The notes under the pieces are model-generated. The model made no database searches. It was not told the origin of the DNA and saw only the letters and a program-made list of their open reading frames with translations. Shown here one piece after another: positions 12,208 through 44,845 of a stretch of DNA of 64,000 nucleotides; positions within the stretch are counted from its first letter, which is position 1; every line of letters begins with the position of its first letter. A program made the position numbers and the translations under genes. The stretch is from NCBI GenBank assembly GCA_964443325.1, contig CAYUCL010000004.1, forward strand, positions 5,885 to 69,884, given 5' to 3'. This stretch comes from an uncultured Dehalococcoidales bacterium. GTDB taxonomy: Bacteria > Chloroflexota > Dehalococcoidia > E44-bin15.

Positions 12208-12673
12208 GCCACGGCCCCAGAGCGAGGAACTCGCCTCGGTGAAATAGTATTTGGAAAGCCAGGGCGAGGAGGAAAAAGTCGAGGGCTAGAGTTTGCGACC
12301 CCAGCACCACCGCTACCTCACCGAAGCAGCCGCAGGGCATTTCCATCCCCCTGGCAAAGGCCATGCTCTTAGCAATAACGAAGCTGATAAGCACCAGAAT
12401 GCTCAACGAGGAGCTGATTCTTAATAGTAATCCTGAGACCAGAAAAACGCCAAAGGCCACCTCAAGTGGAGGAAGAACATAGCCATAAATCTGAACAAAC
12501 GAATAGTAGGGAAATACTTGATATTCGTTGACAATCTGTACGAACCCCTGAAGCTGTCCTAGTTTGGCCGCTCCGGCAAAGATAAATACACCACCCAGCG
12601 CAAACCTGGTGAAAAGAGTGAGGTAGCGATGGGTCAGCACTTGCCCGATTCGGTTGATGCTTGGTGCAGGCAC
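12170..12673 (-). CDS. DoxX/MauE-like membrane protein
   Basis: Four predicted TM helices and a CGCFG motif. Confidence 0.45.
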   Translation of the reverse strand: MPAPSINRIGQVLTHRYLTLFTRFALGGVFIFAGAAKLGQLQGFVQIVNEYQVFPYYSFVQIYGYVLPPLEVAFGVFLVSGLLLRISSSLSILVLISFVIAKSMAFARGMEMPCGCFGEVAVVLGSQTLALDFFLLALAFQILFHRGEFLALGPWLKSRRALRATSL

Positions 12674-12750
12674 GCTGAAATTATACCACAGTTCGCCTTA
12701 CCTTTCTCTCTTTGTTGACATCATAATAGGCGAGAACATAAAATACTCCT

Positions 12751-12828
<78 letters not shown>

Positions 12829-12873
12829 TAAAGCAACCAGCAACTCCTTGAGAGACATGACGTAGATAAAAAG

Positions 12874-12959
12874 GCCGGAGTGGCGGAATAGGTAGACGCG
12901 ACGGTCTCAAAAACCGTTGGGGGGCGACTCCCGTGTCGGTTCGATCCCGACCTTCGGCA
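12874..12959 (+). tRNA. tRNA-Leu (CAA)
   Basis: Long variable arm, anticodon loop CTCAAAA, T-loop GGTTCGATCC. CCA is not encoded. Confidence 0.8.
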
Positions 12960-13048
12960 TTGTTTCGAGCGCTGGCATATATAGCTGTTCCTCAGCAACG
13001 AAAAGCGTTAAGTCCAAAGAGAAACTGGAACACAAAAGGGTGAGAGAT

Positions 13049-13122
13049 TGCCGAGTTGTGTAGTGGTAGCACGGGGGACTTTGGATCCCTAAGCCCAGGT
13101 TCGAATCCTGGCTCGGCAGCCA
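13049..13122 (+). tRNA. tRNA-Gln (TTG)
   Basis: U1:A72 pair with a G73 discriminator, typical of bacterial tRNA-Gln. Anticodon loop CTTTGGA and an encoded CCA. Confidence 0.7.
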
Positions 13123-13152
13123 CGTGAGGATAATCAGCAAGAGGGTTTCATT

Positions 13153-14340
13153 TTGGCTACAGCATTGCAGCATATCAAGGTATTGGATTTCACCAGGGCC
13201 CTGGCCGGCCCTTTTTGCACATTTAAGTTAGCACAACTGGGGGCGGAGGTAATCAAAATCGAGATACCCGGGGAGGGGGATGCATCCAGAACGAACGATC
13301 CCCAGACAGAGGGTGGGGAAAGCTATATGTTCATCAGCGTGAATCGCGGAAAGAAAAGCATCACCTTGAATCTGGCCGCTGAGAAGGGTCGGGAGATATG
13401 CAAACAGTTGGTTGAAAAGGTGGACGTTGTAGTCGAGAATTTTAGCCCCGGGGTGATGGTCAGGCTTGGCCTTGATTATGAAGAACTCAGTAGAGTTACC
13501 CCAGGATTGATATATGCTTCATCGTCAGGGTTTGGGCACACCGGTCCTTACAGTGCACGACCAGCATACGACACAATAGCTCAAGCCATGGGAGGGCTGA
13601 TGAGCCAAAATGGGTTTCCTGATGGCCCACCTACTATGGTGGGAGTGGCAGTATCGGATATGCTCGCTGGCCTCTATAATACAATCTCTATTCTAGCAGC
13701 ATTACAACACCGGTCGATAACAGGCGAAGGCCAATACATCGACATATCGATGCAGGACTGCACATGGGATGTTGCCGGCGCGGGGGCCGCTGCCTTGTAC
13801 TATGGGACCGGCCAGATTCCGCAGAGAAAGGGCAATCGCTACTTCGGTACCTTTGGTGTTTTTCCCGCCAAGGATGGCGATGTGGTGATAGACGTTGTCA
13901 CCATTGGACAATGGGAAAACCTAATGCGGGTTATGGGAAGAGAGGACTTGTTAGAGATTGAACAGTATGTGGACCGAACAAAGCGAACGGAAGTTTCGGG
14001 GGAAATAAGTGCCCTGGTGGAGGCATGGACTGGAGAAAGGACTATAGAAGAGATAGTTAAGCTGCTCAGCGACGCTCACTTGCCAGCGTCACCGGTTCCT
14101 CCATTTGAACAGGTGGCTAATGACCCTCAACTCCTGAGTCGAAATATGGTAGCCGAAGTCGACCAGGTTATCTCAGGCAAAGTCAAGGTGACTGGATCCC
14201 CCTTTAAATTGTCAAAAACGCCAGGTGACCCAACGCTCCCTGCCCCTTTTCTTGGCCAGCATAACCACGAGATATACTGCGATGTCCTGGGATATAGCGA
14301 ACAAGAAATACGGCAATTATCCGATGATGGTATAATATAA
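13153..14340 (+). CDS. CoA-transferase family III (CaiB/BaiF-like)
   Basis: An N-terminal FTRALAGPFC-type motif and the 395-aa length are typical of CoA-transferase family III. Confidence 0.8.
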   Translation: MATALQHIKVLDFTRALAGPFCTFKLAQLGAEVIKIEIPGEGDASRTNDPQTEGGESYMFISVNRGKKSITLNLAAEKGREICKQLVEKVDVVVENFSPGVMVRLGLDYEELSRVTPGLIYASSSGFGHTGPYSARPAYDTIAQAMGGLMSQNGFPDGPPTMVGVAVSDMLAGLYNTISILAALQHRSITGEGQYIDISMQDCTWDVAGAGAAALYYGTGQIPQRKGNRYFGTFGVFPAKDGDVVIDVVTIGQWENLMRVMGREDLLEIEQYVDRTKRTEVSGEISALVEAWTGERTIEEIVKLLSDAHLPASPVPPFEQVANDPQLLSRNMVAEVDQVISGKVKVTGSPFKLSKTPGDPTLPAPFLGQHNHEIYCDVLGYSEQEIRQLSDDGII

Positions 14341-14384
14341 AGAGTAGCCAGCGTCTTCTTATGACGTCATTATGAACAACAGGT

Positions 14385-14459
14385 TCCCCGGTAGCTCAAT
14401 GGTAGAGCGGGCGGCTGTTAACCGCTAGGTTGTAGGTTCGAATCCTTCCCGGGGAGCCA
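14385..14459 (+). tRNA. tRNA-Asn (GTT)
   Basis: Acceptor TCCCCGG/CCGGGGA, anticodon loop CTGTTAA, T-loop GGTTCGAATCC, CCA encoded. Confidence 0.85.
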
Positions 14460-14682
14460 TTTTGCTTTCTTTAAAACTGACTAGATACAAAATGCTCCGA
14501 AATTTGGGATTTTGCCCTATAAGACCAAAATTTGCTTGTTGAAGGGGAGCTTACTATAATAGATCTGATAGAAATAAAAGCGATATGAAGAAAACAGGTA
14601 CTGAAGACAATAGACATAAAGTTTAATGTTTTCATTGTGAGGTGATTTTACCTTAGAATCTTCTGTAAATTGGGAGGCACCA

Positions 14683-15453
14683 ATGCGATATTGGGTACTT
14701 AAAACTACGGAAGGCCGATACGGAACAGATTACTGGGAACGATTCTTGCAGAAAAAGGTTATTGCCATAGGGTGGCACGAGATCCCCGTGAGTCCAGATA
14801 AGGTTAGCCAAGAAGAGCTTGAATCATCTCTGAGGGAGACATATCCCTGTACTGAACGAGGTGCTAAGTACGCTGCTAGGACGGTCAGAAGGTTTGTAAA
14901 CATTGGTGAGAAAGATATCATTCTACTGTGCCGAGGATATCCAGCCAACTATGACGGGGACATCCACATTTATGGAGTTGCTCAGGTAGCTGGACCTTTC
15001 TACGACGATCGAGATTCTGATTGGTGGAGATTTAAACATAAAGCAAATATTCAAGTCATAGAAAGATATGTTCCAAAGAGCCTTCTAGTAAAAACACTTA
15101 AGAAAGCCAGTATGCTCCAGACGTTACACAAGATCGACGTAAAGGGATTTGACGAACTTCTATCAGCGCTGCGCTCAGACTACGGGATCAACATTGACAT
15201 TATTGAGGGACGAGGAGGTGATTTTAAGGTTCGTCAATTTAAAATAATAGTTGAAAAGGCCCCAGATGGCTATGTGGCGTATCCTTTAGGGTTAAAAGGC
15301 GTTGTGATAGGGCAAGGGGATACCTATGAGGAAGCCGTCTCTGACGTAAAATCTGCAATCCAGTTCCATATTGAGACTTTCGGCAAAGAAGTCGTTGAAC
15401 TGGAGCCCCCTGTTCTTGAAGCCTTCATTGCTGAGGTAGGAGTAACTGTTTGA
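14683..15453 (+). CDS. HicB-family antitoxin with a ~165-aa N-terminal PUA/EVE-like extension
   Basis: The C-terminal ~70 aa (GYVAYPLGLKGVVIGQGDTYEEAVSDVKSAIQFHIE) match the HicB/UPF0150 fold. The N-terminus (MRYWVLKT...IAIGW...DIILL...IYGVAQV) resembles the EVE/PUA pattern. The stop overlaps the hicA start by 4 nt. Confidence 0.6.
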   Translation: MRYWVLKTTEGRYGTDYWERFLQKKVIAIGWHEIPVSPDKVSQEELESSLRETYPCTERGAKYAARTVRRFVNIGEKDIILLCRGYPANYDGDIHIYGVAQVAGPFYDDRDSDWWRFKHKANIQVIERYVPKSLLVKTLKKASMLQTLHKIDVKGFDELLSALRSDYGINIDIIEGRGGDFKVRQFKIIVEKAPDGYVAYPLGLKGVVIGQGDTYEEAVSDVKSAIQFHIETFGKEVVELEPPVLEAFIAEVGVTV

Positions 15454-15692
15454 CAGAGAAGTTTCCTGTGGATGCGCCCAAGTCACGGGTCATAAAGGCA
15501 TTTGAGATTCTGGGCTTCAGACTGGTTAGGGAAAAGGAACATATTTCGATGGTACGCGAAAACCCTGACGGGAGTAAAACGCCTCTGACAATGCCAGGTC
15601 ATCAGAGGATAAAGAGTTCAACATTGAGGACAATATGTGCTAAAGCAGGGATACCGAGAGACGACTTTTTAAAAGCCTACAATAAGACATAG
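15450..15692 (+). CDS. hicA: HicA-family mRNA interferase toxin
   Basis: An 80-aa YcfA/HicA fold with RVIKAFEILGFRLVREKEHISMVRENPDG...TMPGH...TLRTICAKAGI. Confidence 0.8.
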   Translation: MTEKFPVDAPKSRVIKAFEILGFRLVREKEHISMVRENPDGSKTPLTMPGHQRIKSSTLRTICAKAGIPRDDFLKAYNKT

Positions 15693-15858
15693 CTTATGTA
15701 ATAGCATTTGTCACCGCATATACGCATCACGCTAACAAACCACACATTGAAAAAAGTTCGAGTTTTCCCACTGCTCGGGGAGCCAAGACTATTTAAACAA
15801 AGAACTTTCTCACTCACCGCTAGCTACTCCATCTTCAAGAGGAGGAGCGCCGACCACG

Positions 15859-17040
15859 TCATCGCGTTCTGGTGAATGCCGGGATACCAGTAATATCAGA
15901 CCCCAGAATGAGTGTGTGGATATGATCGGTGCCCTGATACGTATACACTGACTCAATATTTGCCATGTGTCTCATCGGAGAATAATCCAGAGATATGCCA
16001 TTTGCCCCCAGCAGTTCACGCGCCGTGCTGACACACATGCGGGCAACAGAGACATTGTTCTTCTTAGCCATAGAAATCTGCTGGTGCCTGGCTTTCCCCT
16101 CATCAAGGAGTCTTCCCAACCTGTAGGCTAAGAGTTGCCCTTTGGTAATCTCCATCAACATTGTTACAAGTTTATCCTGCACCAATTGGTAGGAAGCGAT
16201 GGGCGACCCAAACTGTTCCCTTTCCTTAGCGTAATTCAAGGCTGTCTCATAGCAATCCATGGCAGCACCAATCGCTCCCCATGCTATGGCATACCGCGCC
16301 TGATTAAGGCACATAAACGTAGACCGCAAACCTGTTGTTTCTGGCAGTGCGTTCTCGCCTGCTATAACGCAGTCTGAAAACCCGAGTTCGCCAACATCGC
16401 CGGCTCTCATTGAGCCCTTGTGATCTTGGAAACTTTGAGTGAATCCCTCCGTGCCTCGTTCCACCAGAAACCCTCTTACTCCATCATCCGTCCGCGCCCA
16501 AACAACCGCGATATCAGCGACCGACGCTTCGCTTATCCACTGTTTTGTTCCATTGATAACCCATTTGTTGCCATCCTTTCTCGCCACCACTTCCATTGAG
16601 GCTACGTCTGAGCCGTAGTTTGGCTCCGTTAGCCCAAAGCACCCTATGACTTCTCCTTTAGCGATGGATGGCAGCCATTTATTCTTCTGCTCTTCGGACC
16701 CAAATCTCCATATGGGATACATCACCAATCCCGATTGAACACCGACAAAGCTCCTGAGAGCGCTGTCCACCCTCTCCAGCTCCTGGCATATAAGTCCAAA
16801 TGTCATATAGTTTGCACCGGCGGCACCATACTCTTTGGGAACAACGGGGCCAATTATACCCAACTCCCCCATCCTGGGAGCAAGTTCCCGCGTATTCAAC
16901 GGCTCCTCCTGGTGGAAGGCGTTAACAATAAGCGGCTCAATATCTTTTTCCAGGAAATCCCTTACCATGTTTCTGGTCATCTTCTCTTCATCGGAAAGCA
17001 ACTCATCGATATCATAGTAATCTACACCTTCGAACTTCAT
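15859..17040 (-). CDS. Acyl-CoA dehydrogenase (glutaryl-CoA dehydrogenase-like)
   Basis: ACAD domains, 393 aa, with a conserved C-terminal helical domain. Confidence 0.75.
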   Translation of the reverse strand: MKFEGVDYYDIDELLSDEEKMTRNMVRDFLEKDIEPLIVNAFHQEEPLNTRELAPRMGELGIIGPVVPKEYGAAGANYMTFGLICQELERVDSALRSFVGVQSGLVMYPIWRFGSEEQKNKWLPSIAKGEVIGCFGLTEPNYGSDVASMEVVARKDGNKWVINGTKQWISEASVADIAVVWARTDDGVRGFLVERGTEGFTQSFQDHKGSMRAGDVGELGFSDCVIAGENALPETTGLRSTFMCLNQARYAIAWGAIGAAMDCYETALNYAKEREQFGSPIASYQLVQDKLVTMLMEITKGQLLAYRLGRLLDEGKARHQQISMAKKNNVSVARMCVSTARELLGANGISLDYSPMRHMANIESVYTYQGTDHIHTLILGSDITGIPAFTRTR

Positions 17041-44669: not shown

Positions 44670-44845
44670 GTTGACAAATCCTCACCGGCAGATGACCATA
44701 CCGAAACATGGCTGCGAAGCAGGTTGCAAATAGGCTGTGACAGATACCGTTCGTGGTGAGCTTGTCGAACCATGAATGGCCCTTCGACAGGCTCAGGGCG
44801 AACTGAATAAATATATTTTAAGAATGGAGCATCAAGGTTGAAGAA

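Follow-up and report, generated by a model that had tools for sequence, protein, structure and literature searches.

How does a domain of the kind that reads modified bases come to sit on the antitoxin of a toxin-antitoxin pair, and what would such an arrangement do? The question is raised by a short segment downstream of a tRNA-Asn gene in an uncultured Dehalococcoidia/Dehalococcoidales genome, studied here within the window, a 64-kb stretch of DNA whose coordinates are used throughout. Taken as a whole, we consider it reasonably probable that the region at ~14460-15836 is the remnant of a tRNA-Asn islet that has lost its integrase, that it carries hicBA as cargo with a DUF8426-HicB fusion as the antitoxin, and that this fusion would act by the mechanism proposed below. 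The cargo consists of a hicB-hicA operon, a type II toxin-antitoxin system of the short-HicB subfamily. What is new is that an EVE-type reader sits on the antitoxin of a HicAB pair, within a decayed islet at tRNA-Asn. The anatomy of the locus, the two folds of the fusion, the origin of its linker and the presence or absence of the islet in relatives are direct observations. These relatives, uncultured Dehalococcoidia/Dehalococcoidales metagenome-assembled genomes, were found through the protein of the acyl-CoA dehydrogenase gene (ACAD) that follows the islet (90-91% identity); three of them (L001, L008 and L010) have the islet and one (L011) is missing it.

Anatomy of the islet and its cargo

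14385-14459, + strand: intact tRNA-Asn(GTT) with encoded CCA, the left border of the islet (ARAGORN; Rfam tRNA, 69.5 bits)
14436-14459, + strand: T-arm/acceptor 3' part of this tRNA, the attL-side repeat copy, aligning to 15756-15785
14460-14507, + strand: left arm, element-borne, directly 3' of the tRNA, TTTTGCTTTCT..CTGACTAGATACAAAATGCT..
14532-14560, + strand: candidate promoter (TTGCTT, 17-nt spacer, TATAAT), proposed from reading the sequence
14683-15204, + strand: residues 1-174 of the fusion protein, DUF8426 (PF28530), with an EVE/YTH-like fold of the PUA superfamily
15205-15228, + strand: fusion linker E175-K182, the former hicB ribosome-binding site, now translated
15229-15453, + strand: short HicB antitoxin domain, residues 183-256 plus the stop codon, with no DNA-binding domain
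15450-15692, + strand: hicA toxin gene, 80 aa, TTG start (Pfam HicA_toxin, E 4.7e-9)
15756-15785, + strand: degenerate copy of the tRNA-Asn T-arm/acceptor 3' part at the attR position, consisting of GTTCGA, a 14-nt divergent stretch and CGGGGAGCCA
15786-15836, + strand: right-hand non-coding arm, found in the islet-bearing relatives and not in the islet-free L011

A previous description made from the letters alone (the sequence-only reading) had a lower-GC segment following the tRNA-Asn gene at 14385-14459, with hicA and an antitoxin open reading frame (ORF) as its sole genes and the integrase gone. This outline was borne out. Both ARAGORN and Rfam call the tRNA, and the G+C content is 0.37-0.46 over 14300-15800 versus ~0.48-0.54 in the flanks. 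Between the tRNA and ACAD, the ORF survey and Pfam leave just the 256-aa ORF (14683-15453) and hicA (15450-15692) as credible genes, with no integrase-like ORF in 14460-15858. The two genes overlap by 4 nt, the TTG start of hicA meeting the stop codon of the fusion. An Rfam scan of 12500-16500 returned tRNAs and nothing else. A scan for consensus promoters and terminators did no better than shuffles, and the candidate promoter at 14532-14560, whose -35 hexamer matches 3/6, was not flagged by it.

The toxin is recognised by Pfam PF07927 at 36.7 bits (cut-off 27) over profile positions 3-58 of 58; its length is 80 aa from the TTG start, or alternatively 74 aa according to gene callers. H31 (..EKEHISM..) aligns with the His of the GSH motif (..RGSHIRL..) in the HicA of L102, a metagenome contig described below, and from established knowledge of HicA we take H31 to be the catalytic His, the alignment being to the L102 protein only. 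HicA matched nothing among PDB sequences.

The antitoxin moiety next to it has the partial RNase-H-like fold of HicB, and the Pfam HicB model was matched below threshold only. Against PDB sequences the HicB profile gave non-significant matches only (TTHA1756 and HicB), and the full fusion matched nothing there or in NCBIfam. Canonical (long) HicBs carry a C-terminal ribbon-helix-helix (RHH) or helix-turn-helix (HTH) domain. The fusion ends at residue 256 with the HicB fold and has no such DNA-binding domain, a lack it shares with stand-alone short HicBs, of which a DNA-binding domain is not a defining feature and the nearest of which are ~73 aa long. Residue A194 (15262-15264) stands at the position of the His in the HicB motif EKHPDGY, which reads EKAPDGY in the fusions and EKALDGY in L008.

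Origin of the fusion

The junction between the two halves can be read from an unfused hicB. In L093 (GGAGGTTGTGATGGTAAAGCAATTCAAA) this gene begins GGAGGT-TGTG-ATG-GTA-AAG-CAA-TTC-AAA, and the window at the same site has GGAGGT-GATTTT-AAG-GTT-CGT-CAA-TTT-AAA. The Shine-Dalgarno sequence GGAGGT survives at 15214-19 and is translated as Gly178-Gly179, the former start position of hicB is now AAG or GTT (15226-31) with no in-frame start codon nearby, and 39 HicB homologs begin with M exactly at V183 of the window protein. Since the linker represents the ribosome-binding site of hicB, now translated, and the start codon has been lost, we infer that the fusion arose by the joining of adjacent DUF8426 and hicB genes. 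With its start codon gone, the HicB moiety can be produced solely as the C-terminus of the 256-aa fusion. The locus is a clear case of a new domain architecture born through loss of the signals between adjacent genes, because the linker still shows the ribosome-binding site from which it derives.

Assembly error does not explain the fusion: seven contigs from six samples carry it with 100% identity, and it is also found in three other lineages, those of L001, L008 and L010. It is nonetheless confined to one narrow Dehalococcoidia clade: the survey for N-terminal HicB fusions that the sequence-only reading had called for found this architecture in one cluster of three sequences among ~15 billion proteins.

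An exact 12-mer, GAGGTGATTTTA, occurs twice in this part of the window, at 14639-14650 (32 nt before the ATG of the fusion) and at 15215-15226 (in the linker). The copies lie 576 nt, or 192 codons, apart and are less alike in L001 and L010; the probability of any exact 12-mer repeat in 1.6 kb by chance is ~0.08. The pair could be the mark of a DUF8426 cassette inserted into the hicB leader.

The N-terminal EVE-like domain

Homolog searches place residues 1-174 in a small Pfam family, PF28530/DUF8426, whose members form ~160 clusters (50% identity, out of 1.84 billion representatives). The commonest form is a stand-alone protein of 160-190 aa. Other members are joined C-terminally to PLD/HKD (NgoFVII-like) nucleases or N-terminally to HNH or NOV_C/PD-(D/E)xK-type domains, and fusions to EAD7 or an Xre-type HTH are rarer.

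The domain was expected from the letters to be EVE/PUA-like and ~165 residues long; the fold assignment stands and the length is ~174 residues. Its best fold matches are to VcaM4I, an EVE-HNH restriction endonuclease (11.5), and to the EVE protein PH1033 (11.3), followed by YTH domains (about 9), THYN1 bound to 5mC DNA (8.4), the McrB N-domain bound to m5C DNA (7.8) and ASCH (7.7). Residues 1-174 thus have the PUA-like fold common to EVE and YTH domains, and not an unrelated one. Membership in the Pfam EVE family (PF01878) is a separate matter, as the window domain has no Pfam match at E<=1; the EVE model is weakly matched by seven of 122 DUF8426 family members, with a best E of 0.0045. The fold matches, the placement of the domain in the same EVE/YTH clade by Foldseek and the seven weak Pfam EVE matches support the EVE/PUA-like assignment, and we have high confidence in the predicted membership of DUF8426 in the EVE/YTH fold clade. 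A search of PDB sequences with the family profile matched just the PLD parts of fused relatives. The near-invariant residues of the family (W4, W18, W31, W115, F21 and F71) are compatible with a putative aromatic pocket for a modified base.

DUF8426 is also the reader half of PDC-S02, a PADLOC candidate in which DUF8426 is coupled to a nuclease in type IV-restriction-like architectures. Residues 4-164 of the fusion match positions 5-158 of the 324 in the PDC-S02 profile (E 6.7e-8); the match does not extend over the whole profile, the C-terminal nuclease half being unmatched, with HicB in its place. The fold assignment leads to a hypothesis of modified-base specificity for all ~160 protein clusters of the family.

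Selection on the fusion and decay of hicA

The fusion gene is under purifying selection. Its ORF is intact in L001, in L010 and, over the covered part (residue 38 on), in L008. Its ratio of nonsynonymous to synonymous substitution rates (dN/dS) against L001 is 0.27, with 0.35 for the EVE part and 0.04 for the HicB part; across comparisons the HicB part lies at 0.04-0.14. The partner toxin has fared otherwise in these genomes:

hicA, window: intact
hicA, L008: nonsense codon at position 28
hicA, L010: -1 and +2 indels (frameshifts)
hicA, L001: +2 indel (frameshift), with the 3' part replaced by an unrelated 214-aa ORF

The inactivation of hicA is recent, because its dN/dS is still 0.06 at a dS of 0.45 against L008. 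Synonymous divergence is uneven along the islet: dS in the fusion is 0.13-0.15, about one third of that in ACAD and in the 5' half of hicA (0.40-0.50). The first ~40 fusion codons of L010 (L010 8363-8240) are a divergent allele, with 63% nucleotide identity in 14700-14799. Together, the uneven dS and the L010 allele suggest recombination or gene conversion inside the islet.

The 214-aa ORF of L001 (4357-5001) has no Pfam match and stands in place of both the 3' part of hicA and the attR-like fragment. It is another cargo exchange at the same spot.

The islet in related genomes

The surroundings of the islet in the window and its relatives are as follows.

13153-14340: family III CoA-transferase gene, upstream of tRNA-Asn
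15859-17040, - strand: ACAD, convergent, downstream of the islet
Window layout: CoA-transferase gene CoA-T(a), tRNA-Asn, islet, tRNA 3' fragment, ACAD
L010 layout: CoA-T(a), intact tRNA-Asn, 78-aa GIY-YIG gene, partial decayed tRNA-Asn, the same islet, the same tRNA 3' fragment, ACAD
L001 layout: 3' end of an intact tRNA-Asn, two CoA-transferase genes, full-length decayed tRNA-Asn, islet
L008: islet present, with the contig end falling within the fusion gene
L011 layout: CoA-T(a), tRNA-Asn, CoA-transferase paralog, ACAD, with neither islet nor tRNA fragment

A cluster of tRNA-Phe, tRNA-Leu and tRNA-Gln genes also lies upstream of tRNA-Asn in the window. In L010 and L011 the intact tRNA-Asn is followed by ..CCTATCGGC.., and the TTTTGCTTTCT..CTGACTAGATACAAAATGCT arm follows the window tRNA and the decayed tRNA-Asn copies of L001 and L010, which places the left border of the islet at the very end of the tRNA. 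The decayed copies ahead of the islet (L001 2926-3013, full-length; L010 8645-8580, - strand, 5' part missing) contain in the anticodon stem an insertion of ~12 nt, TCCTTCAGCGGAAGGA, able to form a hairpin; their acceptor stem is broken as well, and ARAGORN misses them. Since the islet of the relatives sits behind this second, decayed tRNA-Asn, the intact tRNA that abuts the islet in the window is probably a recombinant junction between two tRNA-Asn copies. Between the intact and the decayed tRNA-Asn of L010 lies the 78-aa GIY-YIG gene (L010 8654-8890, - strand; Pfam E 1.7e-15), a second independent insertion at the same tRNA, which makes the tRNA-Asn site an insertion hot spot.

On the right, a degenerate tRNA copy, GTTCGAGTTTTCCCACTGCTCGGGGAGCCA, had been proposed to close the islet. 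The copy is present and ends at 15785 as described, but it starts at 15756 rather than 15752. The last 10 nt of the tRNA, CGGGGAGCCA, have one other exact copy on the + strand of the 64 kb, at 15776-15785. A gapped alignment of the last 40 nt of the tRNA with the 166-nt hicA-ACAD spacer scores 12; GTTCGA is matched first and CGGGGAGCCA last, and the stretch between them is divergent and differs in length by 6 nt. Of 5000 dinucleotide shuffles 17 score as high, as do 13 of 1496 real tiles of 166 nt taken from the window (p ~0.003-0.009). From these counts the repeat is better than chance, as the sequence-only reading required, though by itself only moderately so. The 15756-15785 fragment is also kept in L010 and L008.

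Two readings of the relatives can be set aside. L011 does not qualify as a clean empty site. Its flanks match the window at 89-92% identity, and homology among all the relatives restarts ~20-25 nt ahead of the ACAD stop codon, but a CoA-transferase paralog sits there and L011 lacks the 50 nt that follow the repeat on the right. Nor is the islet a recent horizontal arrival, its identity to the relatives (~90-97%) being barely above the 81-92% of the flanks. Between the CoA-transferase paralog and ACAD, L011 (7290-7380, - strand) also has a repeat, ..GCCCTGAGCCTGTCGAAGGGC.., which matches window 44747-44819 at 97.5% over 40 nt and 88% over 43 nt and is presumably a dispersed repeat of Chloroflexi genomes.

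A scan of metagenomes with a 20-mer from the left arm yielded one further contig, L102 (Ga0114919_10033501). It shares only window 14436-14507, which covers the T-arm/acceptor part and the 48-nt arm. Identity over this block of 73 nt is 82%, or 87% when the L010 copy is compared, and the block lies in flanks that are unrelated to the window and contain no CoA-transferase. Over L102 1-1660, the tRNA 3' part and arm are followed by a TIR-domain gene (E 1.2e-14), a pentapeptide-repeat gene and another hicB (70 aa)-hicA (80 aa) pair. The spacer before this hicB is weakly like the hicA-ACAD spacer of the window, the attR-like stretch and right arm included (9 of 2000 shuffles); compared with the tRNA itself it shows no resemblance beyond chance (1503 of 2000 shuffles score as high). 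Integrase ORFs were found in none of L001, L010 and L102. The left arm has no copy in viral contigs, and the exact tRNA-Asn 3' end occurs in them only within the tRNA arrays of two large phage contigs, an unrelated occurrence. The pattern shared by L102 and the window is the one expected of an element-borne att region with exchangeable defence or toxin-antitoxin cargo. The proposal that the segment at tRNA-Asn is an islet is thus supported by its presence in three relatives, its absence from a fourth, and the tRNA 3' part with 48 nt of arm in L102.

A proposed mechanism and its rivals

We propose the following sequence of events. A DUF8426 gene would have lain directly upstream of hicB until the two frames became joined. 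In the resulting protein the HicB moiety would bind and neutralise the HicA RNase, and translation of hicA would be coupled to that of the fusion through the 4-nt overlap. The EVE-like moiety may bind nucleic acid with modified bases, for example hypermodified phage DNA, an idea that draws on what its structural relatives bind and on the nuclease partners of the DUF8426 family. Binding of this ligand would localise, titrate or destabilise the antitoxin, and the freed HicA would arrest translation, with an outcome like abortive infection. An antitoxin gated by modified nucleic acid is a plausible hypothesis. The strictest form of the idea, a true sensor-antitoxin in which the binding of DUF8426 to a modified base in phage DNA or RNA releases HicB and unleashes HicA, we think improbable.

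Should the coupling prove functional, the locus would show that the antitoxin can wire a modified-nucleic-acid reader to a toxin-antitoxin switch, in a compact two-gene system suited to testing the link between reader and toxin. If in addition the sensor-antitoxin were true, recognition of modification, the principle of type IV restriction, would drive an abortive-infection RNase in place of a DNase, and DUF8426 would be a new branch of modified-base readers.

Several findings weigh against this explanation. As regards a simple attL/attR pair, no integrase or excisionase is left; the repeat is short, gapped and decayed, with only an exact 10-mer and a 6-mer and the p values given above, and it lies ~50 nt inside the right junction set by L011; and L011 itself has a CoA-transferase paralog at the islet position. 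As regards a working toxin-antitoxin system, the fusion is limited to its single cluster of three sequences, the near-invariant His of the EKHPDGY motif is Ala in all of them, and the stand-alone DUF8426 genes that we examined are not beside hicBA. PDC-S02, moreover, is an unvalidated candidate, one representative of which gave no protection from T4, T5 or T7 in Escherichia coli B. Finally, hicA is inactivated in all three fusion-bearing relatives, that is, in three of four lineages overall, which means that a working toxin is not required to keep the fusion; the idea of a gated antitoxin leans on the one lineage with an intact hicA.

On several of these points one may argue that the fusion is an accident restricted to one clade, at a toxin-antitoxin locus in decay, with no regulatory coupling, in which the EVE-like part keeps a role of its own and HicB is at most an anti-addiction or oligomerisation appendage while HicA is being lost. 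Three different lesions inactivate hicA in three relatives, the architecture is that rare, the linker can be seen to derive from a ribosome-binding site, Ala has replaced the conserved His in the HicB motif, and DUF8426 most commonly stands alone, with no hicBA nearby in the contexts examined. Against this, the HicB part is under strong purifying selection (dN/dS 0.04-0.14), and hicA was constrained over most of the divergence, so that its lesions are recent. The window hicA is intact, overlaps the stop codon of the fusion and keeps its catalytic His. We regard an accident as somewhat unlikely, though it is the chief rival of the gated antitoxin.

A different doubt concerns the islet and leaves the fusion aside. 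The fragment at 15756-15785 might be debris of segmental duplications of the CoA-transferase-tRNA-Asn unit, hicBA having come by another route. The full-length decayed tRNA-Asn of L001 is indeed preceded by a CoA-transferase paralog, the spacer between them seems homologous (by eye, with no formal alignment) to the one before the intact tRNA, and L011 has its paralog after the tRNA; the moderate repeat statistics and the ~50-nt offset fit as well. Against such debris, the right end copies the 3' part of the tRNA only, and repeats generated by integrases at tRNA-targeting islands copy just this part. The 3' part with its 48-nt arm recurs in L102 in unrelated flanks, without a CoA-transferase and with other defence and toxin-antitoxin cargo, and the GIY-YIG gene of L010 is a further independent insertion at the same tRNA. 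Debris is an unlikely source of the fragment in our view.

That the EVE-like domain replaces the missing DNA-binding domain and tethers the antitoxin or its complex at its own promoter, possibly at a methylated site, as housekeeping autoregulation of the pair and not invader sensing, is very unlikely: the HicB moiety does end at residue 256 without RHH or HTH, EVE-like domains bind nucleic acids (as the fold matches indicate) and one DUF8426 member is fused to an Xre-type HTH, but hundreds of stand-alone short HicBs manage without a DNA-binding domain, the sequence upstream of the ORF has no convincing operator-like inverted repeat, and the other DUF8426 partners are nucleases, which points to target recognition and not to operator binding.

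Relation to known systems

Solved HicAB examples include Burkholderia pseudomallei HicB (6g1c/6g1n), Yersinia pestis HicA3-HicB3 (4p78) and E. coli HicB3 (6u0i). The window pair resembles HicAB systems in its PF07927 toxin with the conserved His and in the hicB-hicA order of the short-HicB subfamily, which is found unfused in L093. It differs in that the antitoxin has no RHH or HTH domain and bears a 174-aa EVE-like domain at the N-terminus instead, and in the lost hicB start codon and the sub-threshold Pfam match.

The concept also recalls the fused CapRel(SJ46), in which the antitoxin element of a single polypeptide is the sensor of a phage capsid protein and releases the translation-blocking toxin. 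The two systems are alike in concept and have no homology, and sensing by the window protein is only hypothesised.

Islands that target tRNA genes offer a closer parallel for the segment as a whole. Like them, the islet is at the 3' end of a tRNA, has a partial 3' copy at its far end and a lower G+C content, is present in some relatives and missing from another, carries defence or toxin-antitoxin cargo, and has its arm in another genome. Unlike them, it has no integrase or excisionase, its repeat is decayed, and in the relatives it lies behind a decayed second tRNA-Asn.

EVE domains have been described in fusion to HNH, PLD, PD-(D/E)xK and GIY-YIG nucleases and McrB, and in predicted toxin-antitoxin systems as (PIN)-GNAT-EVE fusions with HTH or ASCH partners (Bell, Wolf, Koonin 2020, PMC7641849). 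These fusions share with the window an EVE-type reader joined to a toxin-antitoxin component, a defence-like context and a proposed recognition of modified nucleic acid (PMC7641849). In them the EVE domain is on the toxin side (GNAT, PIN), whereas the EVE-like domain of the window is on the HicAB antitoxin. The word 'HicA' is absent from the text of PMC7641849, and a literature text search found no publication combining 'EVE domain' with 'HicB'. The locus had been put forward as a novel toxin-antitoxin architecture. Because a link between EVE and toxin-antitoxin systems was already described, the novelty lies in the place of the reader, on the antitoxin of a HicAB pair, and is narrower than claimed.

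VcaM4I (PDB 6yex) and the EVE/YTH readers (PH1033, THYN1, YTHDF/DC and McrB N-domains) have only 9-16% sequence identity to the window domain. VcaM4I differs further in its partner, a DNase fused in cis, where the window has an antitoxin that would control a separate RNase. The nearest likeness to PDC-S02, a single-gene DUF8426-nuclease candidate, is the reader half, and in the window HicB replaces the nuclease.

No unfused DUF8426-hicB-hicA operon was found; the five stand-alone DUF8426 genes examined have other neighbours, namely unknown proteins and proteins with weak HNH_5 or weak UDG matches. Among the remaining members of the family, P0126 joins DUF8426 to an Xre-type HTH, P0226 joins it to the effector-associated domain EAD7, and P0210 (497 aa) has it in the C-terminal part; all three are further architectures of the conflict-system type. 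In L096 (1322-2931) and L097, a stand-alone DUF8426 protein (P0013) is encoded beside a 258-aa protein with a weak HNH_5 match (E 1.2e-5) and a protein weakly of the UDG family, an arrangement that may be a split version of the reader-nuclease systems.

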